The translations under genes were made by a program, and so were the position numbers. Under the pieces are notes generated by a model. The model was not told the DNA's origin. It worked only from the letters and a program-made list of their open reading frames with translations, and ran no database searches. A stretch of 5,495 bases of DNA from the IMG/VR virus record IMGVR_UViG_2713896775_000009; one strand, written 5' to 3'. Positions 188-5,495 of this stretch are shown here, piece after piece; the stretch's first letter is position 1; every line of letters starts with the position of its first letter. This DNA comes from a virus (taxonomy: Duplodnaviria; Heunggongvirae; Uroviricota; Caudoviricetes).

Positions 188-664
188 TTATTCAAGCAGG
201 CTACGCAACATCCAGGCAGTTTTCTCATGTAACTGGATACGTTGTGTAAGCAGATCTGCTGTGGCTTCATCATTCGCATTATTAACGAGCGGGAACAGGG
301 AGCGTGCAGTTTTAACCACGGTCTCCTGGCCCTGGACAAGATTTTCAATCATGTTTTTTGCTGCCGGAATATCCTTATCTTCATTAACCGCTGTTAAACG
401 TGAAAATTCATGATATGTGCCGGGCGCGAAGCATCCGAGCGAGCGTATACGTTCAGCGATATCATCAACGGCAGTGGCCAGCTCATTGTATTGATTTTCA
501 AACATTAAATGTAAGCTGTTAAACATGGGGCCAGTTACATTCCAGTGATAGTAATGTGTTTTTATATACAGGGTATAGGTGTCAGCAAGAAGCCGGGACA
601 GGCCGTCTGCAATCTCCACCCGGGATGATTCAGCAATACCAATATCAATGATTTGTTTACTCAT
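188..664 (-). CDS. Dps-family (ferritin-like, DNA protection during starvation) protein, 158 aa; host gene
   Basis: ORF with ATG start and TAA stop, GAGG about 7 nt upstream. The translation aligns by eye to E. coli Dps across the four-helix core (HW motif, conserved His/Asp/Glu ferroxidase-type residues, DDxTADxLT near the C-terminus) but is clearly not the K-12 dps ortholog. Confidence 0.85.
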
Positions 665-738
665 AACTACCTCTTACACGGTTTCAGTGGAATATACGAT
701 ATGCGATTATTCTTTCCGGTCTGAGCAAAACACGCCTC

Positions 739-760
739 AAATTTTTATAATAAGTTGGCA
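739..760. other. attL core / host-phage junction (B-O-P' type)
   Basis: aaatttttataataagttggca against lambda attL GCTTTTTTATACTAAGTTGGCA. Everything to the right (TAAGTTGGCATTATAAAAAAGCATTGCTTATCAATTTG...) is identical to the lambda P' arm; everything to the left is unrelated to the lambda P arm. Confidence 0.8.
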
Positions 761-779
761 TTATAAAAAAGCATTGCTT

Positions 780-791
780 ATCAATTTGTTG
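780..791. promoter_or_regulatory. IHF H' site of the attachment site
   Basis: ATCAAtttgTTG fits the IHF consensus WATCAANNNNTTR and sits at the position of H' in the lambda P' arm. Confidence 0.6.
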
Positions 792-799
792 CAACGAAC

Positions 800-830
800 A
801 GGTCACTATCAGTCAAAATAAAATCATTAT
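800..830. promoter_or_regulatory. Int arm-type binding sites P'1-P'3
   Basis: Three tandem 10-mers, aggtcactat (800-809), cagtcaaaat (810-819) and aaatcattat (821-830), as in the lambda P' arm. P'3 overlaps the int stop codon. Confidence 0.7.
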
Positions 831-1897
831 TTGATTTCAATTTTGTCCCACTCCCTGCCTCTGTCATCACGATACTGTGATGCCATGGTGTCCGACTTAT
901 GCCCGAGAAGATGTTGAGCAAACTTATCGCTTATCTGCTTCTCATAGAGTCTTGCAGACAAACTGCGCAACTCGTGAAAGGTAGGCGGATCCCCTTCGAA
1001 GGAAAGACCTGATGCTTTTCGTGCGCGCATAAAATACCTTGATACTGTGCCGGATGAAAGCGGTTCGCGACGAGTAGATGCAATTATGGTTTCTCCGCCA
1101 AGAATCTCTTTGCATTTATCAAGTGTTTCCTTCATTGATATTCCGAGAGCATCAACATGCAATACTGTTGGGATGGCAATTTTTACGCCTGTTTTGCTTT
1201 GCTCGACATAAAGATATCCATCTACGATATCAGACCACTTCATTTCGCATAAATCACCAACTCGTTGCCCGGTAACAACAGCCAGTTCCATTGCAAGTCT
1301 GAGCCAACATGGTGATGATTCTGCTGCTTGATAAATTTTCAGGTATTCGTCAGCCGTAAGTCTTGATCTCCTTACCTCTGATTTTGCTGCGCGAGTGGCA
1401 GCGACAGGGTTTGTTGTTATATGGCCTTCAGCTATTGCCTCTCGGAATGCATCGCTCAGTGTTGATCTGATTAACTTGGCTGACGCCGCCTTGCCCTCGT
1501 CTATGTATCCATTGAGCATTGCCGCAATTTCTTTTGTGGTGATGTCTTCAAGTGGAGCATCAGGCAGACCCCTCCTTATTGCTTTAATTTTGCTCATGTA
1601 ATTTATGAGTGTCTTCTGCTTGATTCCTCTGCTGGCCAGGATTTTTTCGTAGCGATCAAGCCATGAATGTAACGTAACGGAATTATCACTGTTGATTCTC
1701 GCTGTCAGAGGCTTGTGTTTGTGTCCTGAAAATAACTCAATGTTGGCCTGTATAGCTTCAGTGATTGCGATTCGCCTGTCTCTGCCTAATCCAAACTCTT
1801 TACCCGTCCTTGGGTCCCTGTAGCAGTAATATCCATTGTTTCTTATATAAAGGTTAGGGGGTAAATCCCGGCGCTCATGACTTCGCCTTCTTCCCAT
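827..1897 (-). CDS. int: Lambda-type tyrosine integrase Int, 356 aa
   Basis: Translation MGRRRSHERRDLPPNLYIRNNGYYCYRDPRTGKEFGLGRDRR...WDKIEIK is near-identical to phage lambda Int as I recall it, with the same length and the catalytic Tyr in the C-terminal ...ASQYRDD... segment. Confidence 0.97.
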   Translation of the reverse strand: MGRRRSHERRDLPPNLYIRNNGYYCYRDPRTGKEFGLGRDRRIAITEAIQANIELFSGHKHKPLTARINSDNSVTLHSWLDRYEKILASRGIKQKTLINYMSKIKAIRRGLPDAPLEDITTKEIAAMLNGYIDEGKAASAKLIRSTLSDAFREAIAEGHITTNPVAATRAAKSEVRRSRLTADEYLKIYQAAESSPCWLRLAMELAVVTGQRVGDLCEMKWSDIVDGYLYVEQSKTGVKIAIPTVLHVDALGISMKETLDKCKEILGGETIIASTRREPLSSGTVSRYFMRARKASGLSFEGDPPTFHELRSLSARLYEKQISDKFAQHLLGHKSDTMASQYRDDRGREWDKIEIK

Positions 1898-2093
1898 TTC
1901 TGATCCTCTTCAAAAGGCTACCTGTTACTGGTCGATTTAAGTCAACCTTTACCGCTGATTCGTGGAACAGATACTCTCTTCCATCCTTAACCGGAGGAGG
2001 GAATATCCTGCACTCGCGTACCCATCGACGAACTGTTTCAAGGCTTCTTGGGCGTCGCTGGCGTGCGTTCCACTCCTGAAGTGTCAAGTACAT
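1875..2093 (-). CDS. xis: Excisionase Xis, 72 aa
   Basis: Translation MYLTLQEWNARQRRPRSLETVRRWVRECRIFPPPVKDGREYLFHESAVKVDLNRPVTGSLLKRIRNGKKAKS matches lambda Xis as I recall it; 23-nt overlap with int, as in lambda. Confidence 0.95.
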   Translation of the reverse strand: MYLTLQEWNARQRRPRSLETVRRWVRECRIFPPPVKDGREYLFHESAVKVDLNRPVTGSLLKRIRNGKKAKS

Positions 2094-2103
2094 CGCAAAG
2101 TCT

Positions 2104-2119
2104 CCGCAATTACACGCAA
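2104..2119 (-). promoter_or_regulatory. cII-binding site / -35 region of the pI (int) promoter
   Basis: Minus-strand sequence TTGCGTGTAATTGCGG contains the TTGC-N6-TTGC cII recognition repeat just upstream of the xis ATG, the position recalled for lambda pI. Confidence 0.5.
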
Positions 2120-2120
2120 G

Positions 2121-2140
2121 AAAAAACCGCCATCAGGCGG
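2121..2140 (-). terminator. Putative intrinsic terminator (minus strand) upstream of xis
   Basis: Hairpin ccgcc-atca-ggcgg (2127-2140) followed on the minus strand by UUUUUUCUU (complement of 2119-2126). It is part of the lambda-identical backbone. Confidence 0.4.
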
Positions 2141-2300
2141 CTTGGTGTTCTTTCAGTTCTTCAATTCGAATATTGGTTACGTCTGCATGTGCTATCTGCG
2201 CCCATATCATCCAGTGGTTATAACAGTCGTTGATGTTCTCTGCTTCGATAACCCTGTTGAATGGCTCTCCATTCCATTCACCTGTGACTCGGAAGTGCAT
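2133..2300 (-). CDS. Small lambda-backbone ORF, 55 aa (lambda orf55-like), unknown function
   Basis: ATG at 2300 with GGAG about 7 nt upstream; translation MHFRVTGEWNGEPFNRVIEAENINDCYNHWMIWAQIAHADVTNIRIEELKEHQAA. The TGA stop lies in the loop of the 2127-2140 hairpin. Below the 60-aa cut-off of the supplied ORF track, so found by hand. Confidence 0.5.
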   Translation of the reverse strand: MHFRVTGEWNGEPFNRVIEAENINDCYNHWMIWAQIAHADVTNIRIEELKEHQAA

Positions 2301-2312
2301 TTATCATCTCCA

Positions 2313-2337
2313 TAAAACAAAACTCGCCGTAGCGAGT
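2313..2337 (-). terminator. Putative intrinsic terminator (minus strand) downstream of the 142-aa cargo gene
   Basis: Hairpin actcgc-cgta-gcgagt (2322-2337) followed on the minus strand by UUUGUUUUA (complement of 2313-2321). It lies at the left boundary where lambda identity resumes. Confidence 0.45.
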
Positions 2338-2383
2338 TCAGATATAATTTCCACCAAAGGCAGTAGTTGCTTGATGCTAAGAA

Positions 2384-2812
2384 TTATTCAATATCTATTC
2401 CTGTAATCTCTTTTATCTTTTTCCTTGCAAAGCCTTTTGCTAGTGATTTTGAAACACTCATAAGTGTACTAATTCCCTCATCCTTAAAGTTTGTTTTTAT
2501 AGCTTGCCAGACATCCTTTTGACGTAAGTCAGCAATAAAATCATGCCCTCTTGCTGTCAACCTCAGTGGTACTTCGATCCAACTATATCCAACACCTTCC
2601 CCTAACGCTTTGGACAATATATGACCGAACCCAGGTTTTCCATCAACCCTGACTATTAATTCGTAGTCACATAATAATCGCATATGGAAAATAAAATCTT
2701 GGTCATATCTATTAAAGCCATTATCCTCTAGTTCACTAAGCATCGTGTCAGGGCCACGAGTTTTTTCGAATGCGATAAGTAGATCTTTTAGATATTGCTG
2801 GTCTAATTTCAT
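2384..2812 (-). CDS. Hypothetical protein, 142 aa (cargo gene A), function unknown
   Basis: ORF with ATG start and a strong GGAGG Shine-Dalgarno 5 nt upstream, TAA stop. It is not part of lambda. No family recognised with confidence; the N-terminal MKLDQQYLKDLLIAFEKT may resemble small phage-associated DUF-type proteins. Confidence 0.7.
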   Translation of the reverse strand: MKLDQQYLKDLLIAFEKTRGPDTMLSELEDNGFNRYDQDFIFHMRLLCDYELIVRVDGKPGFGHILSKALGEGVGYSWIEVPLRLTARGHDFIADLRQKDVWQAIKTNFKDEGISTLMSVSKSLAKGFARKKIKEITGIDIE

Positions 2813-2822
2813 TGCCGCCTCC

Positions 2823-2834
2823 GTGACATGTCAC
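2823..2834. repeat. Perfect 12-bp palindrome GTGACATGTCAC in the intercistronic spacer
   Basis: Read directly from the sequence; it lies between the stop of cargo gene B (2841) and the SD/ATG of cargo gene A (2812). Confidence 0.6.
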
Positions 2835-2840
2835 AGAGAT

Positions 2841-3179
2841 TTATATCATTAATTTTGTTTCGTGCCAGCCTTTGGTCACCCAGCATTGTGAGTCACCATT
2901 ACACGGGCATGAATTAACAGGAACTCTCTCGCCGCACTTACCGCACCGTTTTCTGCTGATCGATTTTATACGCCAGCGCACACGTGCATCATCCTGGCGG
3001 CTCAGTAACGCGATGTACTCACCAAACTCGCAAGGCGCACGCCTGAAGCGACGCGTGGCACAGTTACGCTCCAGCATTTCAATTTCCTGAGCATCAAGTA
3101 CAAGCTCCAGCTTACGCATACCGGATGATGCTTGCTTGGCTCTCTGATCGGCTTTGTGCTCTGTTGCTGATTTAGCCAT
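2841..3179 (-). CDS. Hypothetical Cys-cluster (zinc-ribbon-like) protein, 112 aa (cargo gene B), function unknown
   Basis: ORF with ATG start, AGGA about 9 nt upstream, TAA stop. The C-terminus carries CGKCGERVPVNSCPCNGDSQC (C-x2-C...C-x-C...C). It is not lambda Ea8.5, whose sequence I recall as different. Confidence 0.65.
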   Translation of the reverse strand: MAKSATEHKADQRAKQASSGMRKLELVLDAQEIEMLERNCATRRFRRAPCEFGEYIALLSRQDDARVRWRIKSISRKRCGKCGERVPVNSCPCNGDSQCWVTKGWHETKLMI

Positions 3180-3372
3180 TCTGCTTTTCCTGCATCAGGA
3201 GAAAGACAATCATGGCGGCGCGGATACTTCCGGTATCTTTATACGCGATATTCCCCTTCAATGGCACATACAAGAAGAGAGCCATCAACAGGAGTGATTG
3301 AGGAATCGACAACCAGCAACGCTTAATTATCTATAGTGTCGTATTTGCTTCATAAAATATGGCGAATAACAC

Positions 3373-3404
3373 AAAGCCCGCAGCAGCTCATTGTGCGGGC
3401 TTTT
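3373..3404. terminator. Putative bidirectional intrinsic terminator downstream of cargo gene C
   Basis: Hairpin aaagcccgca / tgcgggcttt (7-bp GC-rich core 3376-3382 / 3394-3400, extendable by A:U pairs, 11-nt loop), flanked by an A-run on one side and a T-run on the other. It sits ~70 nt past the stop of gene C. Confidence 0.45.
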
Positions 3405-3472
3405 CTTATACCTACTTCCTAGAGATAATTCTATGGAGGCATTAAATCAATACTGTCATTGGTAATATCATA

Positions 3473-4087
3473 TTATCTAAAAGTCTTTCCACTTTTAACA
3501 TCTAGGTATATTCTGTTCGACAACGTCATTCCTCCGCAATATGTGAAATAGATGTTTTCACCCTTATTGCTTGATGCCATCCACCCTCCGATTTCCTTAA
3601 AATCGCTTTCCGTGCAGACCCCTTCATTTATTAACTTCCTAGCTGCCGAAGAAAACTCTTTTTTGTATATACGGTAGTCATCAGATCCTTTGATTAAAGT
3701 ATCATCTCCGCTCGCATTTTCAGCAGGATCTGATGGCCTTTCACTGCTAAGATCACTAAATTTAACCCATTCTGAAAACTTGCCATTAACGATTCCATTT
3801 TTTCTTGTGCAGGATTTATTACCTTCTTTAATATATTCGCTTTCCCCTCCAACACATGAGGCTGAATATGGCTCAGTTATACGAACCCATTCACCTTTTT
3901 TTTCTAGAAAATCTACGCCTTCCCTGAAAAATAGTTTCCCAGCCACTCCACATTTACTTGAAGGGCAGGTATGTCTTTCCGTTCGATCAACAACAACCCA
4001 TAGTTTTGATTCATTTTTTGCCATTGCCGATGGTATTTGAGATGAGACAATTAACGTAAGCCCTAAAATTAGTATTGATTTTTTCAT
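3473..4087 (-). CDS. Secreted/periplasmic protein with N-terminal signal peptide, 204 aa (cargo gene C), function unknown
   Basis: ORF with ATG start and AAAGGAA SD, TAA stop. N-terminus MKKSILILGLTLIVSSQIPSAMA-KNE is a classic Sec signal (basic n-region, hydrophobic core, AxA cleavage motif). Six Cys in the mature part. Visibly AT-rich. Confidence 0.75.
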   Translation of the reverse strand: MKKSILILGLTLIVSSQIPSAMAKNESKLWVVVDRTERHTCPSSKCGVAGKLFFREGVDFLEKKGEWVRITEPYSASCVGGESEYIKEGNKSCTRKNGIVNGKFSEWVKFSDLSSERPSDPAENASGDDTLIKGSDDYRIYKKEFSSAARKLINEGVCTESDFKEIGGWMASSNKGENIYFTYCGGMTLSNRIYLDVKSGKTFR

Positions 4088-4385
4088 TGTAATTTCCTTT
4101 TACTTTTTACAAAGCGTTTAATCATGGCTGATTATCTCTAAGTGTAGTAACAGCCTTGTGCGAAACATGTTACCAAATCGCCATTTCAGTGTATCCGCAG
4201 TTAGGCTGCCACTTCAAGGATTCCTAATTACATGGTACGTAAGCGTAAAATCCCGTTGGTTGGCGGGTAATAACTCTGATCAAATCTCCCTTGTCTTTTG
4301 CTCTTACGTATGCAGCTCTTGTGTATTCAACCCAGGCCTCCAGTTCAGCAATACGCTTACTTCCATCCGAGATAACACCTTCTAC

Positions 4386-4637
4386 TCACGCTGCTCGTTG
4401 AGTTTTGATTTTTGCTGTCTCCAGCTCAACACGCAGTTTCCCCACCGTTAGCGCAATATCCTCGTTCTCCTGGTCGCGGCGTTTGATGTATTGCTGGTTT
4501 CTTTCCCGTTCATCCAGCAGTGTCAGCACAATCGATGGTGTTACCAGCTCATGGAAAAGGTCCGCGTCAAATCCCCAGTTGTCAGGCATTGCCTGCTCTG
4601 CCGCTTCACGCAGTGCCTGAGAGTGAATTACGCTCAC
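4386..4637 (-). CDS. ea22: Ea22-like protein, N-terminal 83 codons ending at an in-frame TGA (truncated or chimeric)
   Basis: GTG start overlapping the orf73 stop (GTGA), with AGAGAGG SD. Translation MSVIHSQALREAAEQAMPDNWGFDADLFHELVTPSIVLTLLDERERNQQYIKRRDQENEDIALTVGKLRVELETAK... matches the lambda Ea22 N-terminus as I recall it. The same frame continues open past the TGA to 4227. Confidence 0.75.
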   Translation of the reverse strand: MSVIHSQALREAAEQAMPDNWGFDADLFHELVTPSIVLTLLDERERNQQYIKRRDQENEDIALTVGKLRVELETAKIKTQRAA

Positions 4638-4855
4638 TTCGAACCTCTCTGTTTACTGATAAGCTCCAGATCTTCCTGGCAACTTGCACAAGTCCGACAA
4701 CCCTGAACGGCCAGGCGTCTTAGCTCATCTATGGGATCGCCACACTCACAACAATGAGTGGCAGATACAGCCTGGTGGTTCAGGCGGCGCATTTTTATTG
4801 CTGTGTTGCGCTGTAATTCTTCAATTTCTGATGCTGAATCAATGATGTCTGCCAT
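4634..4855 (-). CDS. orf73: TraR/DksA-family C4 zinc-finger protein, 73 aa (lambda orf73)
   Basis: Translation MADIIDSASEIEELQRNTAIKMRRLNHQAVSATHCCECGDPIDELRRLAVQGCRTCASCQEDLELISKQRGSK carries the CxxC-x17-CxxC TraR-type motif and lies between ea22 and the orf61 region, as in lambda. Confidence 0.9.
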   Translation of the reverse strand: MADIIDSASEIEELQRNTAIKMRRLNHQAVSATHCCECGDPIDELRRLAVQGCRTCASCQEDLELISKQRGSK

Positions 4856-4910
4856 CTTCCATTAATCCCTGAATTGTTGGTTAATACGCTTGGGGGTAAA
4901 TGCGAGCAAT

Positions 4911-4931
4911 AAAAAAGGAGCCTGTAGCTCC
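4911..4931 (-). terminator. Putative intrinsic terminator (minus strand) between the orf61 region and orf73
   Basis: Hairpin ggagc-ctgta-gctcc (4917-4931) followed on the minus strand by UUUUUUAUU (complement of 4908-4916). Confidence 0.4.
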
Positions 4932-4953
4932 CTGATAATTTTGCTTTTCATGT

Positions 4954-5235
4954 TCATCGTTCCTTAAAGACGCCGTTTAACATGCCGATTGCCAGGCTTA
5001 AATGAGTCGGTGTGAATCCCATCAGCGTTACCGTTTCGCGGTGCTTCTTCAGTACGCTACGGCAAATGTCATCGACGTTTTTATCCGGAAACTGCTGTCT
5101 GGCTTTTTTGATTTCAGAATTAGCCTGACGGGCAATGCTGCGAAGGGCGTTTTCTTGCTGAGGTGTCATTGAACAAGCCCCATGTCGGCAAGCATAAGCA
5201 CACAGAATATGAAGCCCGCTGCCAGAAAAATGCAT
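4954..5235 (-). CDS. Small lambda early-left-region protein, 93 aa from the first ATG (71 aa if started at MTPQQ, ATG at 5169)
   Basis: Open frame with TGA stop. The internal ATG at 5169 has a GGGG SD-like element about 5 nt upstream; the ATG at 5235 has no obvious SD. Corresponds to the lambda orf61 locus but in a different frame and length here. Confidence 0.6.
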   Translation of the reverse strand: MHFSGSGLHILCAYACRHGACSMTPQQENALRSIARQANSEIKKARQQFPDKNVDDICRSVLKKHRETVTLMGFTPTHLSLAIGMLNGVFKER

Positions 5236-5245
5236 TCAGTGGTTG

Positions 5246-5437
5246 TCATACCTGGTCTCTCTCATCTGCTTCTGCTTTCGCCACCATCATTTCCAGCTTT
5301 TGTGAAAGGGATGCGGCTAACGTATGAAATTCTTCGTCTGTTTCTACTGGTATTGGCACAAACCTGACTCCAATTTGAGCGAGGCTATGTGCCATCTCGA
5401 TACACGTTCTTAACTCAACAGGAGATGCTTTGTGCAT
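5246..5437 (-). CDS. orf63: Lambda Orf63-like protein, 63 aa
   Basis: Translation MHKASPVELRTCIEMAHSLAQIGVRFVPIPVETDEEFHTLAASLSQKLEMMVAKAEADERDQV; ATG with a GGGGGG SD; position and length as lambda orf63. Confidence 0.9.
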   Translation of the reverse strand: MHKASPVELRTCIEMAHSLAQIGVRFVPIPVETDEEFHTLAASLSQKLEMMVAKAEADERDQV

Positions 5438-5495
5438 ACAGCCCCCCGTTTATTATTTATCTCCTCAGCCAGCCGCTGTGCTTTCAGGGGATTTC
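5410..5495 (-). CDS. 3' end of an orf60a-like ORF (partial, enters from beyond the window end)
   Basis: Minus-strand frame is open from the window edge, ...NPLKAQRLAEEINNKRGAVCTKHLLLS, to a TAA at 5410-5412. It overlaps the orf63 start by 28 nt, as recalled for the lambda orf60a/orf63 pair. Confidence 0.5.
   Translation of the reverse strand, partial: NPLKAQRLAEEINNKRGAVCTKHLLLS

Follow-up and report, generated by a model that had tools for sequence, protein, structure and literature searches.

A lambda-type attL junction in plasmid accessory DNA upstream of a Dps-family gene is consistent with secondary-site integration of a Chlobot-like phage

The DNA analysed here, referred to as the window, is a stretch of 5,495 nt from a Caudoviricetes record (IMG/VR IMGVR_UViG_2713896775_000009). 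It contains a genuine phage–target junction, an attL of the form B-O-P′, at a non-canonical site. The reading that we consider most probable (about 0.88) is Int-mediated integration of a Chlobot-like phage at a secondary site on a plasmid, followed by decay and spread of the inserted DNA.

Results

The junction falls within the att core

Base-for-base alignment and the limits of homology define a hybrid 15-bp att core, AAATTTTTATAATAA, at positions 739–753 (like the two arms that flank it, a feature without strand). Sequence matches show that phage homology starts at 742 and that target homology stops at 753, giving a crossover interval of 742–753 in which target and phage agree at 11 of 12 bases. 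Aligned to lambda (J02459), whose core reads GCTTTTTTATACTAA, the hybrid core displays mismatches at 739–741 and at 750. The 7-bp overlap (744–750) ends at position 750, its sole mismatch, and reads TTTATAA here versus TTTATAC in lambda; the A at this position is the base of the target, present in the empty site too, whereas the phage has C. Following strand exchange by Int, replication or repair of the heteroduplex overlap can have two outcomes, one of which is the target base, and we infer that the A retained at 750 represents one of these two expected resolutions.

The core lies 75–89 bp upstream of the Dps ATG, its left edge being 75 bp from that codon, and is preceded by the native Dps upstream region (665–738), the B-arm side of the target, which in the alignment is identical to the empty site. 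On its right, the lambda P′ arm (754–826) shows zero mismatches to J02459, and between 754 and 2157 lambda differs from the window only at 3 bases in int and 6 in or beside xis. The canonical junction, as found in E. coli O157, runs instead from ybhC into gttgaagtctGCTTTTTTATACTAA and directly on into gttggc. A preliminary description made from the sequence alone had noted a lambda-identical P′ arm, a single mismatch in the 7-bp overlap, a flank unlike that of lambda attB and a position about 75 bp upstream of a Dps-family gene, and the alignments bear out each of these points.

The features by which an attL is recognized are found at this position: the homology switch falls within the 15-bp core and the 7-bp overlap, the P′ arm with its core-type C′, IHF H′ and arm-type sites lies directly beside the 3′ end of int, and int encodes a lambda Int-type tyrosine recombinase with an arm-binding domain and the RKHRHY residues. 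A reciprocal attR (P-O-B′) at the other prophage end is missing. The break in homology is not a chance resemblance, because, in a phage of ~46 kb, it sits exactly within the attP core. This position also bears on whether the joint could have been made without Int, by microhomology-mediated or IS-associated illegitimate recombination ending in the AT-rich core, which we regard as extremely unlikely. IS26, IS5, IS110 and Tn3-family elements make up a patchwork in this region, a Tn3-family-like end lies 1 bp away in CX21-type plasmids, and the 12-bp stretch shared by target and phage could act as microhomology. However, for a breakpoint placed at random in a phage of ~46 kb, the estimated chance of hitting the 15-bp attP core is ~3 in 10,000, the complete P′ arm and int directly adjoin the break in the orientation of an attL, and the joint itself carries no IS end.

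The phage arm and its neighbouring genes

The P′ arm contains what we take to be a match to the IHF consensus (TATCAATTTGTTG, 779–791) and three decamers that presumably correspond to arm-type Int sites (AGGTCACTAT at 800–809, CAGTCAAAAT at 810–819 and AAATCATTAT at 821–830), the last of which overruns the P′ arm part by 4 bp, into the int stop codon at 827. The integrase gene, identified from the ORF list like the other genes described here, is intact (827–1897, minus strand; 356 aa; PF09003, 112.9 bits; PF00589, 137.9 bits). Its product retains 6 of 6 catalytic residues (R212, K235, H308, R311, H333 and Y342) and differs from lambda Int at 3 residues. The adjoining excisionase gene, xis (1875–2093, minus strand; 72 aa; PF07825, 139.3 bits), encodes a protein that differs from lambda Xis by a single substitution, G59S.

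From 2094 to the end of the window at 5495, the minus strand carries early-left (b2/ea-type) genes of a Chlobot-like lambdoid phage. The closest free phage, Escherichia phage Chlobot (PP925838.1), is a complete lambdoid phage of 46.5 kb that matches the window from 754 to 5495 with 5 mismatches over 4,742 bp (99.9% identity) and has the canonical attP core, GCTTTTTTATACTAA. No papers were found in a search of the literature for this phage by name. One of the early-left ORFs (3473–4087, minus strand; 204 aa), also present in Chlobot, has a signal-peptide-like N terminus, MKKSILILGLTLIVSSQIPSAMA, and is a candidate accessory (moron) gene for a secreted protein or lipoprotein.

The empty site and its plasmid module

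In 168 PLSDB plasmids from Klebsiella, Citrobacter, Escherichia, Enterobacter and Raoultella, counted at a coverage of at least 80% of a junction-spanning query, the Dps gene is followed directly by a PaaI-thioesterase gene. The same continuity is seen in 6 of 6 near-identical species-representative loci, including the diverged allele of loci L011 and L012, which identifies the Dps–PaaI arrangement as the ancestral, empty site. The target as reconstructed, TCAAATT-TTTATAA-TAACCAG, lies within the 114-bp PaaI–Dps spacer, ~26 bp downstream of the PaaI stop codon, and the ~30-bp stretch around it reads gcctcAAATTTTTATAATAAccaggtac. Right of position 753, related records continue into three different sequences: the lambda P′ arm, the PaaI-thioesterase gene and a Tn3-family-like terminal repeat. 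The preliminary description had proposed a comparison with the uninterrupted locus, reasoning that an empty site with the same sequence right of 753 would speak against a phage junction; the empty sites differ there, and the junction is therefore real.

The third of these continuations occurs in CX21-type plasmids, in which a terminal repeat, GGGGTTTGAGGGCCAATGGAACGAAAACGTACG (8754–8790 of locus L002, corresponding to window position 754/755), starts 1 bp right of the crossover interval. We assume this repeat to be of the Tn3-family-like type, and its location indicates that the same AT-rich spot was struck independently by a transposon. The PaaI family thioesterase gene (8779–9039 of locus L003, minus strand) encodes 86 aa that cover positions 11–71 of the 79-position 4HBT profile, suggesting that this gene upstream of Dps may be truncated. 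The Dps–PaaI module is also found, at 100% identity, on a 6-kb contig (JARKOR010000021.1, locus L010) of a Saccharibacteria MAG named ‘Candidatus Nanosynbacter’; the presence of an enterobacterial module in this MAG is probably a binning artefact.

The Dps-family gene itself (188–664, minus strand; 158 aa) scores 102.7 bits against PF00210, for which the Pfam cut-off is 24.5 bits, and its product is predicted to contain the ferritin-like four-helix domain of the Dps/ferritin-like family. Filled and empty copies share one RefSeq accession, WP_000043177.1, ‘Dps family protein’. A total of 49 E. coli records, for the most part plasmids, contain the whole left flank (1–753) at 100% identity, and the Dps gene occurs at 98–100% identity only in small enterobacterial contigs and plasmids; its next relatives, at 74–87% identity, are from Tolumonas and other Aeromonadales. 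Together with a methyltransferase, an FAD-dependent oxidoreductase and an ArsR/SmtB protein, Dps forms an accessory module surrounded by IS elements. The flank, which had been described as host DNA, is thus not chromosomal, being mobile cargo on conjugative plasmids of the five enterobacterial genera in which the empty site occurs.

Secondary site or natural attB

The preliminary description had left the choice between integration at a secondary attachment site and a lambda-like phage with a different natural attB. The first option is favoured over the second by the canonical core of Chlobot and the absence of the variant overlap from viral contigs: TTTATAA joined to P′ occurs in none of the 2.9 million viral contigs of IMG/VR, versus at least 120 occurrences of the canonical overlap joined to P′. 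The same int end and P′ arm are matched at ~1,950 E. coli chromosomal places, and the single junction read among these matches lies beside ybhC. The phage thus has a canonical primary attB and attP core elsewhere, the attP of the parental phage being deduced from that of its relative Chlobot, and the Dps site is normally unoccupied, with 168 empty versus 14 filled plasmid records.

A lambda-like phage carrying a variant attP (TTTATAA), with the Dps-upstream site as its natural attB and the event a primary integration, is in our view very unlikely. Such a phage would fit the TTTATAA overlap of the attL and the 3 residues at which its Int differs from that of lambda, and, attR being lost, the parental attP is not directly observable. 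On the other hand, the phage closest in sequence (99.9% identical across 4.7 kb, int included) carries the canonical core; the variant form is missing from a viral data set in which the canonical one is abundant; the site is empty in 168 plasmids and all occupied copies represent one clonal junction; and the A at 750 is the base of the empty target. Since attR is lost, attB and attP are not reciprocally reconstructible from one element. Taken at the level of sequence comparison, the evidence favours a secondary-site integration rather than a phage with a different natural attB.

The target agrees with the canonical 21-bp attB at 13 of 21 positions and with its overlap at 6 of 7, the left core-type site being a poor match (TCAAATT versus CTGCTTT, 2/7). 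Sites as attB-like as this one occur once every few tens of kb, so that sequence alone does not explain the choice of the spot. Lambda integration at secondary sites has been studied by Tanouchi and Covert (2017; PMC5605937), with more than 300 sites mapped that are used at ~0.5% of the attB frequency, and with conserved positions comprising T at −1, −2, −3, −5 and −6, C at −7 and −10 and A at +5 and +6. Under one reading of that paper's numbering, the target matches this motif at 6 of 9 positions.

A prophage remnant without attR

The phage DNA right of the junction is a ~9.5 kb remnant that extends from int to just before exo and continues with lysis, trkG and tail-fibre pieces up to an IS26. 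In order, the segment from int to the DUF1317 gene is followed by a truncated lysozyme gene, a spanin-like gene, trkG, a ynaK fragment, a tail-fibre assembly gene, a truncated tail-fibre gene, a recombinase fragment and the IS26 end. Four carriers, namely two chromosomes and one plasmid of E. coli and one plasmid of Klebsiella michiganensis, have this structure in common and share a block of ~13–15 kb at 99.95% identity or more. In locus L004, homology to Chlobot covers 20183–25010 and breaks just before exo, 74 bp past the end of the window. At 25003–29650 of the same locus, the Chlobot-like DNA is fused to the truncated lysozyme gene, followed by rzpD-like, trkG, ynaK′, tfa, tail-fibre′ and pin′ sequences, pieces that to our eyes resemble the right half of the Rac prophage.

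The set expected of a functional prophage, that is immunity, replication, lysis and morphogenesis genes together with both att sites, is incomplete: the remnant contains no immunity, replication, head or tail genes and no PL, N or cII. A search for attR at the other prophage end, as had been proposed, found none, the right end being IS26. A full-length attR match (a lambda P-arm/B′ chimera) occurs in 0 of 72,556 plasmids and 0 of 5,426 E. coli genomes, and the exact attR joint (a 27-mer) in none of 185,579 species-representative genomes. This absence is most simply a secondary loss through truncation by IS26, and in consequence the remnant cannot excise through Int/Xis. The term prophage used in the preliminary description is therefore to be replaced by that of a non-functional remnant, identical in structure in the four carriers, and a comparison of lysogen with non-lysogen becomes inapplicable.

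All copies of the filled junction, which occur in 18 E. coli records and 14 PLSDB plasmids (two lists that overlap), agree at 100%, and this identity indicates that the junction arose once and spread afterwards. The chromosomal copy of AH04 (849 kb) belongs to a block that is derived from a plasmid, bounded by IS26 and adjacent to yghS/yghT and pitB. Because this block is bounded by IS26 and is not at att-lambda, its movement appears to have been driven by IS elements and plasmids. Int-mediated plasmid integration at att-lambda was considered for the AH04 copy and rejected, the block being IS26-bounded and its neighbours yghS/yghT and pitB, not ybhC.

Several plasmids hold both an empty and a filled copy, namely the 303-kb plasmids NZ_CP081775, NZ_CP081783, NZ_CP081685, NZ_CP081691, NZ_CP081678 and NZ_CP081768, as well as NZ_CP034659 (454 kb). 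This suggests that the Dps–remnant block was added, probably by IS26, to plasmids already holding the module. In plasmid pECO-816c of ECONIH4, ISSen4 truncates int 60 bp into its 3′ end (L001 20887, window position 887), a further decay of the same junction. Separately, records of ~48.4–48.5 kb, namely PLSDB plasmid entries labelled as Stenotrophomonas (NZ_CP104294), Paenibacillus (NZ_CP068597) and Salmonella (NZ_CP082339) and the phage MW057783 (‘Campylobacter phage CJLB-4’), match lambda at ~99–100% over the queried regions; these lambda-like records in unrelated hosts are most likely lambda control-DNA contamination.

Possible effect on Dps expression

The int and Dps genes are co-directional. 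In lambda, tI/sib is located in the P arm (27544–27577), at a distance of ~150–180 bp on the left side of the core, and the window does not contain it; lambda tI was located by direct string search, its loop exceeding the limit of the terminator scan. That scan calls no terminator-like site between the int stop and the Dps ATG, in agreement with the geometry envisaged earlier, in which transcripts that lack tI/sib could run from int into Dps. The further proposal that the junction lies in the probable Dps promoter region finds no support, as no consensus promoter is detectable in the 75 bp retained upstream of Dps or in the empty-site spacer. A 9/12 promoter match inside the int 3′ end (867–840) is also found in lambda and is within chance expectation, and the predicted RNA fold of the int–Dps spacer is no more stable than that of shuffled sequence (z = 0.26). 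A candidate PaaI terminator split by the insertion (hairpin in B′, T-tail in the core) was rejected, having a stem of 4–5 bp and a loop of 2–4 nt and not being called by the scan.

In lambda, transcription in the int direction is driven by PL, N and cII. A TTGC-N6-TTGC box read from the sequence just upstream of the xis ATG (2106–2119, minus strand) occupies what we take to be the position of the cII-dependent pI promoter of lambda (the cII box); this box is preserved, and the activator gene cII is absent from the remnant. The terminator scan calls a hairpin with a T-run upstream of xis (2124–2143, minus strand) and a second terminator-like hairpin before xis (2339–2320). The first of these would halt non-antiterminated leftward transcripts before int and Dps.

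It is therefore unlikely that the insertion changed the control of Dps expression, by way of a hybrid promoter, the IHF and Int sites or read-in from int, and in this way aided the spread of the block. The position of the core, close upstream of Dps and close downstream of PaaI, the loss of tI/sib with no terminator-like site from int to Dps, and the location of the IHF consensus match, now ~115 bp upstream of the ATG, would all be compatible with such rewiring. Yet no consensus promoter was found on either side, the folding of the junction RNA is unremarkable, the remnant lacks PL, N and cII, and xis is preceded by terminator-like hairpins; moreover, the empty arrangement is ~10 times commoner than the filled one, and IS26 and plasmid transfer suffice for the spread. 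Judged from these sequence features, an effect on Dps expression is geometrically possible and otherwise speculative, and would be limited to the lost upstream context (the PaaI gene and its read-through) plus a possible weak read-in from int.

Discussion

The most probable history starts with a lambdoid phage very near Chlobot, with lambda-type Int and Xis and a canonical attP, which would have integrated by Int-mediated site-specific recombination into the weak secondary site TCAAATT-TTTATAA-TAACCAG of the 114-bp PaaI–Dps spacer; the PaaI–Dps pair is part of an accessory module on conjugative plasmids of Enterobacteriaceae. The window contains the resulting attL (B-O-P′), with the A of the target kept in the overlap at position 750. 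The prophage would then have decayed, presumably through an internal deletion that joined the pre-exo region to lysis, trkG and tail-fibre fragments and through removal of the right end and attR by IS26. The resulting block of ~13–15 kb, comprising the methyltransferase, oxidoreductase, ArsR and Dps genes and the 9.5 kb remnant up to IS26, would have spread between plasmids and into chromosomes, probably with IS26 as its vehicle. Catalysis by Int, the order of the decay steps and the part played by IS26 in moving the block are deduced from the structures described above.

Lambda integrates at secondary (non-attB) sites, as reportedly described by Shimada, Weisberg and Gottesman in 1972 and by Rutkai et al. 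in 2003. The present case resembles such integrants in its Int-type junction, which is placed within the 15-bp core and adjoins an intact P′ arm beside int, in a target that is rich in T in its left half, has A at +5/+6 and departs from the canonical overlap at a single base, and in a site that is usually empty while the phage has its normal site elsewhere. It differs from them in that the target is plasmid accessory DNA and not the E. coli chromosome, and from laboratory isolates in being a natural, fossilized event whose prophage has since been reduced to a non-excising remnant. With canonical prophages at the ybhC–ybhB attB, as in E. coli O157:H7, it shares the P′ arm, int, xis and their orientation relative to the left flank, but it has a Dps left flank instead of ybhC, four core differences and no attR. 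Similarly, the identity to Chlobot extends over int, xis and all early-left genes, whereas only 4.8 kb of this 46.5 kb phage with its canonical attP survives here, fused to unrelated prophage pieces. The element is also comparable to ‘grounded’ or cryptic prophage remnants in IS26-bounded plasmid regions, being truncated, deprived of one att site, flanked by IS26 and carried as cargo between replicons. Unlike these, it has perfectly intact int and xis frames and attL; a recent origin accounts for this, and selection need not be invoked.

We consider it far-fetched that the int-xis-attL cassette, carried on broad-host-range conjugative plasmids, is still active in trans, on Dps or on att sites. 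If it were, cII supplied by a superinfecting or resident lambdoid phage would fire the pI box and yield an int–Dps co-transcript free of tI/sib, coupling a DNA-protection protein to phage infection. Alternatively, resident lambda-type prophages would be substrates for the plasmid-borne Int and Xis, or these proteins would recombine the attL of the plasmid with att sites on the chromosome.

The junction is a modest addition, a new instance of a long-known phenomenon, and implies no new mechanism; its twist is a target within plasmid cargo and a fossil junction that circulates among genera. It provides a natural, datable case of lambda-type off-target integration, fossilized and then spread across genera by IS26 and conjugative plasmids. 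For annotators, it carries the warning that an intact integrase beside an att-like core does not equal a prophage, and that mobile DNA may also make up the flank of such a junction.
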